Part shown: positions 3,521-21,247 of the stretch, in pieces | How positions within the stretch are numbered: the stretch's first letter is position 1 | Layout: every line of letters begins with the position of its first letter | Assembly (NCBI GenBank): GCA_003166335.1 | Contig: PMWA01000031.1 | Coordinates: 29,399 to 61,091, forward strand | Origin: Methanobacterium sp. | GTDB lineage: Archaea > Methanobacteriota > Methanobacteria > Methanobacteriales > Methanobacteriaceae | Direction of reading: 5' to 3' | Length of the DNA: 31,693 nucleotides | Program-made: the position numbers and the translations under genes | Notes under the pieces: generated by a model | Told to the model about the DNA's origin: nothing | What the model saw: only the letters and a program-made list of their open reading frames with translations | Databases searched by the model: none

Positions 3521-3536
3521 TATAACAACCGTTATA
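3521..3536. promoter_or_regulatory. Candidate operator TATAAC-AACC-GTTATA
   Basis: Perfect match to the recurring palindrome, 5 nt downstream of TATATATA (3508-3515) and upstream of the GMC gene. Confidence 0.7.
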
Positions 3537-11822: not shown

Positions 11823-11838
11823 TTTAACGATAGTTATA
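11823..11838. promoter_or_regulatory. Candidate operator TTTAAC-GATA-GTTATA
   Basis: One mismatch to the consensus; directly follows a TTTATA box and precedes the PNPOx-like gene. Confidence 0.6.
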
Positions 11839-12294: not shown

Positions 12295-12654
12295 ATGGAA
12301 TTAAGGGTGATTACAGTATCATTTAAAGTAGCTGTTGCAAGTAGTGATGGAAAATTCGTTAATCAGCATTTTGGTATGACTCCACAATTTTTGATATTCG
12401 AAATTGATGATAATGGAGATTATAAATTTTTGGAGTTAAGAGAAAACATTCCTGCATGTGATGTGGGAGGACATACAGAAGATGCTATGACCACGAGTGT
12501 GAGATTGATCTCGGATTGCAAAGCACTTATTGCTAGTCACATCGGACCAGCAGCTGTTAATATATTATTAGATCATGGGATAGATCCTTACATAGCGCCT
12601 ATGTTTATTGAGGAAGCTTTAAAAGAGTTGGTATTGTCATTGAAAAAAGAATAA
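12295..12654 (+). CDS. NifB/NifX-family (dinitrogenase FeMo-cofactor-like) small protein
   Basis: KVAVASSDG..VNQHFG...F.IFE, DC..LIASHIGPAA...L...GI. Start position uncertain. Confidence 0.88.
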   Translation: MELRVITVSFKVAVASSDGKFVNQHFGMTPQFLIFEIDDNGDYKFLELRENIPACDVGGHTEDAMTTSVRLISDCKALIASHIGPAAVNILLDHGIDPYIAPMFIEEALKELVLSLKKE

Positions 12655-12702
12655 TTATTGCATAATAAAAATTTAAATTTCAAATAGTTAAATCTCAATA
12701 TA

Positions 12703-12710
12703 TTTATATA
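12703..12710 (+). promoter_or_regulatory. TATA box upstream of the structured region
   Basis: TTTATATA about 20 nt before the first stem (12731), at roughly TATA-to-TSS spacing; BRE weak. Confidence 0.45.
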
Positions 12711-12730
12711 AAGATCTGTTGTATTATATA

Positions 12731-13302
12731 CTCTAAAACCGAAGATAAATTAATGGCGAAATTTATCTTCGGAATAGAGATTTATAGCAGAGTTGAACTT
12801 TTTGTTATGTACGGAGGTCATACATAACAGAGTGAAGCTTTCTAAAAAGAAATAGAAACAAGAGATGATACATTCAATTGGCAGAGGATGATTTTTTTTT
12901 GTTTCTTTAAAATTTTTTAGATGCTTTTTCACTCAATGACCGATTTTTTAGAAATGAAGCTCAGAAATTTGTCTTTGGAGATGTTCTATCCAATGAATTT
13001 TCAGTTAAAATTTCATTTCTTTTTCATTGTTTTGCTATCCAAGACTTAAAACGTACTGGTGATAAGCTGTGCTTATGAACTTTTATGGTGATAGGTTTCC
13101 GGTGGTTTTAAAGTCTTGGATAGTAAACTCGTGGTTTACATGGACTTAAATATTTAGACATTGTTTTTTTTATCTACACATTTTTATACACCTCTATTAT
13201 GGAGGTATTCGGGGTTTCCAATCGAAGTTTAATGAGATATACACCTGAATTTCTGGTTTTTTTTATTCTGGTGCATTAAACATTCGGTTGGAATGGTGAG
13301 GT
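12731..13302. ncRNA. Candidate multi-hairpin non-coding RNA (strand unresolved)
   Basis: Stems at 12739-12751/12760-12772 (13 bp perfect), 12803-12811/12821-12829, 12854-12861/12899-12906, 12950-12958/13012-13020, 13031-13052/13105-13127 (22 bp, one bulge), 13190-13194/13202-13206 and 13216-13234/13274-13293 (19 bp, one bulge). No convincing long ORF. Confidence 0.65.
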
Positions 13303-13392
13303 AATTATTTTCGTTATATAGGTTCTTATATAACGATCGTTATAATTAACCTCTAATATAACAATTGTTATATTTCATATATAAAGGTTTCC
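13303..13392 (-). promoter_or_regulatory. Minus-strand BRE/TATA promoter with a downstream operator array
   Basis: Minus strand GGAAACC-TTTATATA (13392-13378); perfect TATAAC-N4-GTTATA at 13357-13372 and 13329-13344; half-site GTTATA at 13313-13318. Confidence 0.7.
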
Positions 13393-13735
13393 ATTTTGAA
13401 TAACTCGCAAAACTGTTGTTATAAATATTTATGAATTTTGCAATTATAAGTATAATAACAAATTTGAAAAAAACGCCATTTAAAAAAAAGAAATGGGAAA
13501 AAACCATTTCAAACACTCTACAGTCCAAGAAATTGAAAATTTATAAATAGTTTTTCATACATAATATCATGGGAGAAGTTCATAAAGATCAAAAAAATTT
13601 CATCTTACAATATCAATTAATGAATCAAAACTCATTTTTAAGATTTATATGCATTTTCAAACTTTATTTTTTAAATTTATTTTTGACATATGAAAATTAA
13701 CTAGAAAATAACATCTATTTAGGAGGATTAAAATA

Positions 13736-14566
13736 ATGGTTTCTAAAGAGGAAGAACATAAAAAGGCGTTAATGCAAGAGGAAATTGACATTATAAAAAA
13801 GATGAGTAAGATTAAACATAAAATTGCAGTAATGAGTGGGAAGGGAGGTGTAGGTAAATCTACCATAGCCGTGAATTTAGCAGCTGCTTTTGCAAAAAAA
13901 GGATATAAAACAGGTATCATGGATGTTGATGTGCATGGACCCAATGTTCCAAAGATGTTAGGATTAGAAGGAAAAAGTTTAAAGTTTAGTGATGATGGTA
14001 TAATACCTATTGAAACTGAAGAAGGCATAAAAGTCATGTCTGTAGGATTTTTTTTATCTTCTCAAGATACTCCTCTAATTTGGAGAGGTCCTGCAAAAAC
14101 TGGTGTTATAAAACAATTTTTTGCAGAGGTTATCTGGGGTGATCTGGATGTGTTAATTATTGATAATCCTCCGGGTACTGGAGATGAGCCTTTAACTATA
14201 TTACAGACTATTCCATTAGATGGTGTTGTATTAATAACCACTCCTCAATCAGTAGTGCAAGAAGACGTGATAAAGAGTGTTAATTTAGTTAAAAGTTTGA
14301 AGATTTCCATAATAGGAATTATTGAAAATATGTCTGGTTTTGTATGTCCAGAATGTAAAAAAGAGATTTTAATATTTGGTAAGGGAAGTGGTGCTAAAAT
14401 GGCTGAGAAAATGGATGTTCCTTTTCTTGGAAGTTTACCATTAGATGTGGAAACATCTGCAGCCTCTGATATTGGAACTCCTATTCTAATTAAAGAACCT
14501 GAATCAGAAATTTCAGTTAAAATATTAAAAATTGCAGATAAAATCGAGTCAAAAATTATGAAGTAG
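13736..14566 (+). CDS. mrp: Mrp/NBP35/ApbC Fe-S cluster carrier ATPase
   Basis: [60 protein letters not shown]. Confidence 0.95.
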
Positions 14567-14868: not shown

Positions 14869-14884
14869 TATAACAATAGCTATA
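14869..14884. promoter_or_regulatory. Candidate operator TATAAC-AATA-GCTATA
   Basis: One mismatch to the consensus; lies between TTTATAA (~14851-14857) and the cysK RBS. Confidence 0.6.
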
Positions 14885-16844: not shown

Positions 16845-17225
16845 ATGCGACCTCCTTGTGAAATAGTAGTATGGTATGTAATTCCAACAATACGATCTGA
16901 ATTAGCTAAAGCACTTTTAAAATTAGGCATGAAACAGAAACAGATTTCAGAACTCTTGGATATAACTCAACCTGCAGTTTCCCAATACATTAGTGATAAA
17001 AGAGGGCACGGACTTAAACTCGAGCCGGAAATTCATGATATGATTAATGAATTTGCAAAGGATATTATGGATGGAAAAGCAGACCAACGTGATATTATAC
17101 CTAAAACATGTGAAATTTGCAGGAAGATAAAGGCGGAAGAAGTAATATGTCAATTGCATCATGAGAAAGATAAAATACCTACAAATTGCACAGCATGTAT
17201 GGGTTCAGAAGCTCACAGTTGTTAA
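16845..17225 (+). CDS. XRE-type HTH transcriptional regulator (COG2522-like) with Cys-rich C-terminus
   Basis: MRPPCE..V..VIP.IR..LA, HTH QKQISELLDITQPAVSQY...KRG; Cys at 5, 89, 92, 102, 115, 118 and 126; RBS GGTGAT. Confidence 0.88.
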   Translation: MRPPCEIVVWYVIPTIRSELAKALLKLGMKQKQISELLDITQPAVSQYISDKRGHGLKLEPEIHDMINEFAKDIMDGKADQRDIIPKTCEICRKIKAEEVICQLHHEKDKIPTNCTACMGSEAHSC

Positions 17226-20224: not shown

Positions 20225-21247
20225 ATGAGGATATGTATTATTGGCTTTGGATCAGTAGGGCAGGGAGTCGTCCGAGTATTCAATATGAAAAGAAACCGTA
20301 TAAAACAGGATTATAATTTAGATCTTCAATTAGTGGCGGTGGCTGATAGTAAAGGAGCAGTTATATCCGAGGAGGGTATTAATCTTGCATTGCTTCTGGA
20401 GACGAAACTAAATACAGGTAGAGTATCCGATTACCCGGAGTGTGGTGTAAGTGGTTTAACGGGTATGGATTTACTGGATAAGGTTGAATATGATTGTTTA
20501 GTGGAGGTTACTCCCACTAATATAGTTGACGGGGAACCTGCAAGAAGCCACATGTTAAAAGCTATGAATAAGGGAAAAAATGTGGTAACCAGTAATAAAG
20601 GTCCGTTAGCATTAGGATTCACTGAATTAAGGGATACTGCACTGAATAATAATGTAATGTTTAAGTATGAGGCTTCAGTTGGTGGAGCTATGCCGATTAT
20701 AAATTTTGCTCATGAAACTCTCTCCGGCTGTGAAATAAAGTCAATTTACGGTATTTTGAATGGTACCACTAATTATATACTCAGCCGAATGGCTAAAGAA
20801 GGTTCATCATATAACCAAACACTTAACGAAGCTAAAGAGATGGGTATAGCTGAAACAGATCCCACTCAGGATGTAGAAGGAGAGGATGCTGCCTGTAAAG
20901 TGGTGATACTAGCTAACAGTATAATGAATATGAATGTAACTTATAATGATGTTATAGTGAAGGGTATATCACAGATTACACCAGAATCAATACAATTAGC
21001 GAAAAACGAGGGTTACCTTATAAAACTCATAGGAGAAGTTTCACCTGACTCTTTAGAAGTATCACCTCGATTGGTTAGTGAAGGTTCACCATTCGCTGTA
21101 GAGGGCACTTTGAATGTTGCTACTCTCAAAACAGACTTAGCGGATGATGTTACAGTAGTGGGTAAGGGTGCTGGTTCAATTGAAACCGCTTCTGCTATAT
21201 TAAGTGATCTTATAAGCATCTCGAAAGCAATAAAGAATATTAAATAA
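20225..21247 (+). CDS. hom: Homoserine dehydrogenase
   Basis: [63 protein letters not shown]. Confidence 0.96.

Follow-up and report, generated by a model that had tools for sequence, protein, structure and literature searches.

A candidate cysteine-sensing leader-type RNA with a Met-Cys-Arg mini-ORF in a sulfur gene island of Methanobacterium sp.

The sensing of amino acids by a ribosome that reads a mini-ORF (short open reading frame) in a leader RNA is textbook knowledge for bacteria. In the trpL, hisL, and pheL attenuators, the ribosome reads regulatory codons and the folding of the RNA depends on the position of the ribosome. To our knowledge, a ribosome-read, amino-acid-sensing leader mini-ORF has not been established in archaea, and no archaeal case was found in the literature searched, of which mostly titles and the beginnings of abstracts were covered. 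The subject of this study is an ORF-free element of about 660 nucleotides (nt; 12735-13395) on contig PMWA01000031.1 of Methanobacterium sp., which was analyzed within a stretch of 31,693 nt, referred to as the window, whose positions serve as coordinates throughout. The genome under study (G000) is 99.4% complete. With a probability of roughly 0.55, the element represents a minus-strand, ribosome-read, cysteine-sensing RNA of the leader type, without a downstream gene in this genome. This reading proceeds from observed sequence features, the pattern of conservation, and coverage by RNA libraries.

The closest described systems are cysteine-rich short frames of bacteria. In the consulted portions of the sources, mycobacterial polycysteine short ORFs are described to attenuate cysteine operons, with the stalled ribosome blocking a structure that hides the next ribosome-binding site (RBS; 10.1101/834739), and leader peptides with Cys codons are predicted in Actinobacteria (PMC1262725). 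As far as these excerpts go, the family considered here resembles the mycobacterial "Cys ribulon" (Ms5788A type) and the actinobacterial leaders in a tiny Cys ORF that leads cysteine or sulfur genes, in RNA pairing that hides an RBS, and in several loci with one proposed signal, charged tRNA-Cys. In contrast to the bacterial Cys leaders, for which the same excerpts give runs of up to eight Cys codons, the archaeal frames comprise 3-5 codons with 1-2 Cys codons and are led by a Shine-Dalgarno (SD) sequence instead of being leaderless. Moreover, a structured RNA of 400-650 nt stands behind them, their promoter is operator-controlled, and no gene follows in G000. Regulatory codons read by the ribosome, as proposed here, would be shared with trpL, hisL, and pheL, but no terminator/antiterminator pair was found in the element. 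Archaeal termination needs oligo-U only. The CsrB/RsmZ RNAs, in turn, feature many GGA loops and need CsrA. Repeated short purine motifs, some of them in hairpin loops, occur in the element as well, but here two to four loops carry mixed motifs and the likely strand is the opposite one, CsrA not being found. Archaeal non-coding RNA with RBS-complementary stretches is represented by the sRNA162 type (sRNA, small RNA) of Methanosarcina mazei; compared with the consulted part of that report, the element differs in that its motifs are not universal in the family and that the mini-ORF, whose translation is predicted, is the best-conserved part (PMC3510493). A model for the action of an "orphan" leader is offered by rnTrpL of Sinorhizobium, a leader-peptide attenuator RNA which, according to the accessible part of its source, also acts in trans as an sRNA, and which differs in being bacterial, tryptophan-related, and equipped with a defined terminator (PMC7968998). 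Five traits set the family apart: minimal length, a single or split Cys codon, an SD of its own, a promoter under operator control, and the orphan arrangement.

The sole SD-preceded start on the minus strand of the element opens a frame of Met-Cys-Arg (Table 1). Its SD, which forms one (3') arm of a hairpin, is half-buried; the opposite, anti-SD arm is the reverse of TGGAGGT, one of eight motifs noted on the plus strand in a preliminary description of this DNA. This hairpin covaries, reading ACUC/GAGU in the second copy of a congeneric genome (G005) and CUCC/GGAG in G014. For a comparison across the family, 18 flanks of the 70-nt promoter module that forms the right end of the element (13326-13395) were fetched from 13 genomes. 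Of these flanks, 16 could be oriented, and two (L123 of G155 and L125 of G160) did not enter the counts due to an unclear direction or a contig end. Adding G000, G014, three orthologues, and two paralogues brought the set to 23 sequences, which are kin and not independent (G046 and G099 are near-identical, likewise G014 and G018), so that about ten lineages in five genera carry weight. Under a relaxed rule (ATG-TG(T/C), at most nine codons, on the firing strand, within 900 nt), 22 of the 23 sequences contain such frames, 33 altogether, and the reverse strands none. The predicted peptides are MCR (17 times), MCSCR (four times), MCSCK, MCNCE, MCCN, MCRCN, MCK, and a small number of longer or doubtful peptides. 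The variants MCSCR, MCSCK, MCNCE, MCCN, and MCRCN all retain their second TGT in phase with the first; only MCCN (G102) has two Cys codons in a row, and the other two-Cys frames read Cys-x-Cys. The other mini-ORFs feature a C/U-rich stretch 2-7 nt ahead of GAGGUG. A strict SD rule, which does not include the AGGAGTG of the G014 group, yielded 20 Cys-containing frames in 12 of the 23 sequences and none on the reverse strands; 19 of these frames begin with Met-Cys, and the exception, MPCTIN, lies inside a tusA gene. In the whole genome, 17 strict-rule frames were counted in 4.98 Mb (both strands). The pattern GAGGTG-N5-8-ATGTGTAG gave 46 matches in 35 of 328 genomes of the order and 19 matches in the backwards control, hence it does not define the family by itself. 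One match of SD plus ATGTGTAG lies about 340 nt from the module of G155. An ATG TGC AGA TAA on contig C9, which likewise encodes MCR, was dismissed as chance, being located inside a 244-codon ORF.

The operator type of the module is two TATAAC-N4-GTTATA palindromes behind a B recognition element (BRE) and a TATA box on the minus strand, so that the promoter presumably fires toward the mini-ORF. In all module copies compared, RAAA..TTTATATA stands 3-4 nt ahead of the first palindrome, and the upstream purine-rich BRE is kept. The double module is present in 21 of 201 sampled genomes of the family and in 7 of 27 genera, with no match of the backwards control. Genes follow in the direction from TATA box to palindromes in five genomes (G021, G102, G105, G091, and G057). 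The leader precedes tusA-dsrE in the genera g22 and g28 (G102, G105, G091, and G057) and an Hdr-like gene in g17 (G200 and G164). In addition, G005 holds two further, more diverged copies, which precede, on the same strand, an O-acetylhomoserine (OAH) sulfhydrylase-type gene and a tusA-dsrE-cysteine desulfurase operon. Judged from these sequences, the leader family spans at least five genera of Methanobacteriaceae. Promoter direction, mini-ORF, and the gene order of the paralogues make the minus strand, for which a regulatory RNA had been proposed before, by far the most likely functional strand. In genus g17 (L115, L117, and L131), a second double-palindrome module precedes tusA-dsrE with a different leader, which shares the terminal hairpin CUAACCAGAGAU...AUCUCUGGUUAG and holds doubtful ATG TGC frames only, without the MCR 12-mer.

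The same operators connect the element with other genes of G000. Single palindromes precede cysK (14869), a PNPOx-like gene (11823), and ORF 3588 (3521), and elsewhere on the same contig they stand before tusA/dsrE-like, OAH-sulfhydrylase-like, and other genes. At seven gene-linked sites of this genome, a TATA-like box is found 0-12 nt before the palindrome on the strand of the gene. As this promoter is common to cysK, tusA-dsrE, and O-acetylhomoserine sulfhydrylase-type genes, the link to sulfur and cysteine, which had been suggested in the preliminary description, is well founded. The palindromes beside the element are certainly DNA sites, and the operators appear to mark a candidate cysteine/sulfur regulon of G000. 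Palindrome sites lie at 3521-3536, 11823-11838, 13329-13372, and 14869-14884 in the window, at 20529, 22700, and 27292/27310 of contig C107, and at 38701 of contig C123. The targets of TATAAC-N4-GTTATA include an ORF resembling flavin adenine dinucleotide (FAD) oxidoreductases, and nearly all exact sites of the genome are found on one contig. For the PNPOx-like gene, the listed start ATG 11820 passes through the operator; ATG 11859 behind GGTGG is the likelier start. An HTH_3 gene after cysE (16845-17225, 126 aa) was considered as the palindrome regulator and rejected: it occurs in 181 of 201 family genomes, versus 21 of 201 with the module, and is therefore too widespread for co-occurrence to give a specific link.

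Table 1. Features of the ORF-free element and its promoter (window positions).
Feature	Position	Strand	Remarks
BRE-like purine stretch GGAAACC and TATA box TTTATATA (13388->13381)	13381..13395	-	Sequence
Double operator: TATAACAATTGTTATA (13357-13372), 12-nt G-rich spacer, TATAACGATCGTTATA (13329-13344)	13329..13372	.	
Unpaired pyrimidine-rich stretch UUACCUCACC (motif TGGTGAGGT of the preliminary description)	13294..13304	-	Fold; UUACC(U/C) kept in other genera
Long-range helix CGAAUGUUUAAUG / CAUUAAACUUCG	13222..13283	-	RNAalifold of four orthologues
SD-sequestering hairpin: ACCUCC (13206->13201) pairs with SD GAGGUG (13194->13189)	13189..13207	-	
Mini-ORF AUG UGU AGA UAA (Met-Cys-Arg-stop)	13181->13170	-	7 nt after SD GAGGUG
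Large hairpin with two UAUCACCA motifs in inner loops (twice motif TGGTGATA of the preliminary description)	13031..13127	-	Fold
Block A: UCAUCCUCUGCCAAUUGAAUGUAUCAUCUCUU (holds motif GAGGATGA of the preliminary description), A-run ahead	12860..12891	-	Core identical in three orthologues and two paralogues
Hairpin 2, loop GACCUCC (motif CGGAGGT of the preliminary description)	12803..12829	-	Fold
Hairpin 1 CCGAAGAUAAAUU...AAUUUAUCUUCGG, loop holds motif TGGCGA of the preliminary description	12739..12772	.	Covariation test
RNA-library contig coverage	12787..13339	.	X17 12787-13284, X18 12813-13339, X15 12937-13251 (variant strain)

Behind the mini-ORF and around it, several helices and blocks recur. 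The order of long-range helix, large hairpin, block A, hairpin 2, and hairpin 1 (from 13283-13222 onward) is found in this genus, g17, and g23. By eye, the long-range helix is kept in paralogue 2 of G005 via paired changes, and the stem of the large hairpin is kept there with an A:T to G:C change; its CCUAUCACCAU is also retained in G014 and genus g17. Block A is kept in G014, g17, and g23 as AUCAUCCUCUGCC..AUGUAUCA, and was also read as AUCAUCCUCUGCC..AUGUAUCAUC in the recurring order of pieces. In hairpin 2 of G014, G018, G008, and G003, the loop is kept and the stem is replaced (AUGUUUUA/UAAAACAU). For hairpin 1, 86.9% of the cells are paired among 13 sequences, with four pairs changed on both sides; its covariation of 0.161 versus 0.094 was reached by none of 500 shuffles. 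Two or three copies of the sequence (C)UCUGCCA are present on the firing strand, located within block A and ahead of hairpin 1 (12780-12795); G008 (L121) has three, and G000 reads CUCUGCUA ahead of hairpin 1. At the gathering score, Rfam 15 recognized tRNA-Cys alone in the whole window, and only sub-threshold chance matches were obtained in 12500-13900 (mir-182, snoRNA, and others), of which the mir-182 match coincides with the large hairpin. A C/D-box sRNA in block A was ruled out by eye, as it is without the RUGAUGA/CUGA pair, and a T-box-like pairing with tRNA-Cys was discarded, since tRNA-Cys ranks 13th of 35 in a crude duplex scan.

RNA contigs cover the element in three of four peat metatranscriptomes, with none in X16; such contigs cannot show strand, ends, or level. 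Adapter letters flank the X17 contig on either side, those behind 13284 being the P7-side adapter. This places read 1 on the plus strand, indicating a minus RNA if the library is a usual dUTP library; in that case, 13284 might be a 5' end or processing site of the minus RNA. Contigs of X18 are absent from 13392-14261, and coverage is interrupted in every run between 12783 and 12813, but such gaps prove nothing. The predicted fold of the minus strand amounts to -148 kcal/mol with a z-score of -8.1, versus -6.4 on the plus strand. No T5+ run exists on the minus strand between 13340 and 12850, and the nearest U-run lies about 320 nt after the mini-ORF.

According to the proposed mechanism, the BRE/TATA promoter with its two palindromic operators would drive a minus RNA from about 13358 down to about 12790 or 12735. 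The SD, partly locked by the ACCUCC hairpin, would recruit a ribosome that reads AUG-UGU-AGA-UAA. If charged tRNA-Cys is scarce, the ribosome would wait on UGU right after initiation and hold the SD hairpin open, which may alter the folding or fate of the RNA behind it, i.e., the large hairpin, block A, and hairpins 2 and 1. The tusA-dsrE or Hdr-like sulfur genes that follow this device in other genera would have their expression set by it. Since no gene follows on the minus strand in G000, the output here would be either an RNA that is itself regulatory or antisense transcription toward the NifX-like gene next to the element. Translation of the mini-ORF and a response to cysteine are thereby predicted from sequence.

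Several observations weigh against this reading. Downstream of the element, no minus-strand gene was found within the window, so that this locus does not share a transcription unit with biosynthetic genes behind it. A short ORF with the sensed codon and translation start signals is present, but a run of at least two regulatory codons is absent in G000, whose frame has a single UGU. The 12-mer of the mini-ORF is identical in 17 copies with zero synonymous changes, which fits the constraint of an RNA or protein-binding sequence as well as coding. As to mutually exclusive structures, the SD hairpin of the mini-ORF itself was found, but no terminator/antiterminator pair could be defined. Hairpin 1 shows five A.C versus one G.U on the mini-ORF strand, so this helix may serve the opposite strand, and selection may act there, e.g., on the 3' end of the NifX-like mRNA. 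The plus strand gives the lower raw folding energy, presumably in part owing to its G+U-rich composition, and carries runs of T9, T8, and T8 plus a TATA-like box at 12704, which would fit plus RNAs. Within the PNPOx-like gene, itself encoded on the plus strand, X18 shows a plus-strand P5-type adapter tail, hence the libraries may be unstranded or sense-first. Finally, the identity among close species (80-84%) is no better than that of third codon positions of the flanking genes (73-85%); conservation among close species is therefore no proof of selection. The stretch 12709-13256 is cleanly missing from G017 of the same genus.

The three congeneric orthologues (G005, G004, and G012) align over about 12720-13400. 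In the element's own genome a repeat search revealed a single copy, which rules out a repeat or mobile element in G000. A coding region or pseudogene was excluded as well by indels of 1-2 nt dispersed across the alignment and by the lack of conservation of the plus-strand ORFs behind the SD-like motifs. The copy of G014 was missed by BLAST and nhmmer; the nhmmer profile retrieved no distant copies, though G014 holds one. Scans with an 18-mer revealed 46 loci in metagenomes (5 real) and 32 in genome contigs (4 real), all of the same four species. Besides, 548 nt of the element are gone in G017 (L013) and the palindromes are degenerate there, so the presence of this stretch varies among species of the genus. 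About 1.2 kb without ORFs separate the element from mrp in G004, and a methyltransferase gene fragment lies between both in G005 (L012, 1839-2108).

The eight motifs from which the preliminary description had started were all located exactly: TGGCGA at 12754, CGGAGGT at 12812, GAGGATGA at 12884, TGGAGAT at 12976, TGGTGATA at 13057 and 13086, TGGAGGT at 13200, and TGGTGAGGT at 13294. They were scored against the SD consensus AGGAGGTGATC, which was inferred from gene starts because the 16S gene is not readable in the assembly; TGGCGA, TGGAGAT, and GAGGATGA are not SD-like by this standard. An enrichment over shuffled sequence applies to plus-strand SD hexamers, with four separate sites in 12752-13302 versus 0.60 expected (1000 dinucleotide shuffles; P about 0.006, post hoc), but not to pentamers (5 sites versus 2.9 expected, P 0.17) or to minus-strand SD motifs over the same interval. 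Genome-wide, 169 of 48,508 overlapping windows of 551 nt (0.35%) reach at least four hexamer sites. In the minimum-energy fold, the described position in loops is confirmed for TGGCGA, CGGAGGT, TGGTGATA at 13086, and TGGTGAGGT, but not for TGGAGGT, which pairs in a stem with CACCTC at 13189-13194; clear hairpin loops hold two motifs, TGGCGA (hairpin 12739-12772) and CGGAGGT (hairpin 12803-12829). Most of the motifs had been described as lacking a usable ORF; none of the plus-strand ORFs behind them is conserved, including the frame MVLKSWI.., which is broken in G012. The motifs are real and mildly enriched, and the best explanation is that they belong to a leader-type RNA of the minus strand with a link to cysteine and a Met-Cys-Arg mini-ORF at its core, in which they represent the SD, its anti-SD partner, and loop or linker motifs.

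An earlier proposal read these motifs as a minus-strand, trans-acting sRNA whose ACCUCC, AUCACC, CCUCACC, and UCAUCCUC mask the RBSs of Fe-S- or Cys-rich mRNAs under sulfur shortage. This appears unlikely, and loops that mask RBSs did not turn out to be the conserved core, as the features shared across genera are the SD-preceded Cys mini-ORF, the SD-sequestering hairpin, and several helices. Conservation of the loops is itself divided: the GACCUCC loop is kept in the same genus and UAUCACCAU in two genera, and compensating changes maintain the ACCUC/GAGGU hairpin, but the motifs are lost in the paralogues and two other genera. On the firing strand, anti-SD hexamers number 3-4 versus 0.4-0.8 expected in this genus and 2-3 versus 0.5 in g17, which favors masking together with the kept positions of GACCUCC and UAUCACCAU, the four motifs unpaired in the fold, and the missing downstream gene, which makes trans action plausible; moreover, RBS masking by an archaeal sRNA has a precedent in the consulted part of the literature (PMC3510493). 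Against it, no such hexamer occurs in the g22 and g28 leaders and in paralogue 3, and one in paralogue 2, hence they are a feature of a sub-family and not of the device; in g17, the stretches pair in cis with downstream partners (by eye). A rough duplex scan of six anti-SD-like segments against 1670 self-called start regions gave a marginal excess of Cys among the best 50 predicted targets (1.9% versus 1.13%, Mann-Whitney P 0.016; best 25, P 0.04), which include ferredoxin-like and MvhD/HdrA-like proteins. The signal is gone among the best 100 and 200, the reversed-segment controls gave P 0.11-0.59, start sites were roughly called, and SD-complementary sequence pairs with almost any gene start. 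In a separate observation, the 12 letters GGAATGGTGAGG (13290-13301) recur at the start of a dihydrodipicolinate-synthase-like ORF (contig C113, near 16932), to whose SD region the minus RNA is perfectly complementary over 12 nt, with about 0.3 matches expected by chance.

Masking could coexist with the mini-ORF, the latter being the sensor and the remainder the effector. In this rather improbable combination, the Met-Cys-Arg frame would report tRNA-Cys charging, and the waiting ribosome would unmask GACCUCC, UAUCACCA, and UUACCUCACC against RBSs of Cys- or Fe-S-rich mRNAs; alternatively, the RNA would act as antisense on the NifX/PNPOx-like operon. Similarly improbable is a decaying remnant, i.e., the leader of a lost or moved sulfur gene that is still transcribed and functionless in G000. 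The missing downstream gene, the close-species identity at third-codon level, and the loss in G017 would agree with decay, as would G005, where an insertion sequence (IS) transposase abuts the element and broken gene pieces are nearby. However, the same head-on arrangement with the NifX-like gene exists in seven species of this genus and in G196 (g23), and SD, mini-ORF, hairpins, and block A are all intact.

A plus-strand RNA, either the 3' untranslated part of the NifX-like transcript or up to three small RNAs with SD-like loops as a decoy, has a low probability. Such small RNAs would end at the T-runs 12892-12900, 13163-13170, and 13258-13265. Apart from the lower folding energies, the TATA-like box, and the T-run after block A, which is also present in G014, this reading draws on the G.U pairs of hairpins 1 and 2 in G012, which fall on the plus strand, and on NifX contigs extending to 12783. 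Nevertheless, the RNA contigs pass T9 and T8 unbroken, the z-score favors the minus strand, no conserved plus-strand ORF or SD-start pair was found, and promoter, SD, Cys frames, and downstream genes all lie on the minus strand across genera. The CsrB-like decoy of the preliminary description is unlikely in particular, as a CsrA search (PF02599) had no match in G000, with matches in the controls E. coli, B. subtilis, and T. maritima, and as the minus strand is favored by the promoter, the mini-ORF, and the order of genes at the paralogues. A control region at the DNA level, with protein-binding sites, inverted repeats, and RNA without a role, is very improbable: both the invariant 12-mer and the repeats CUCUGCCA of block A resemble binding sites and the adjacent palindromes are DNA sites, but compensating changes preserve the helices, frames of different length retain their Cys codons in phase, and RNA libraries cover the element.

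The leader-type RNA is located in a gap without ORFs of 1081 nt (12655-13735), which contains all motifs and is flanked by the NifX-like gene (12295-12654, plus strand) and a gene of an Mrp/ApbC-type Fe-S carrier (13736-14566, plus strand). A minus RNA of the element would run head-on into the NifX-like gene. In G005 (L012, 1-669), the gene of an IS-type transposase replaces the NifX-like gene beside the element. The window as a whole is a cysteine/sulfur gene island, comprising in order a PatB C-S lyase, tRNA-Cys (1771-1841), cysS, a ThiF/MoeB-type E1, Hdr-like genes, SsuA-like, ThiS-like, and PNPOx-like genes, the gap, cysK, and cysE.

The leader family, with its minimal frame of 3-5 codons that always opens with Met-Cys and a conserved operator-controlled promoter, sits before genes of sulfur trafficking. 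Accordingly, it gives a testable handle on cysteine and sulfur sensing in methanogens, on transcription-translation coupling in archaeal regulation, and on the role of orphan leaders. In addition, TATAAC-N4-GTTATA defines a candidate cysteine/sulfur regulon. If the combination of sensor and effector in one RNA were true, a cysteine-sparing response would be wired directly to translation.

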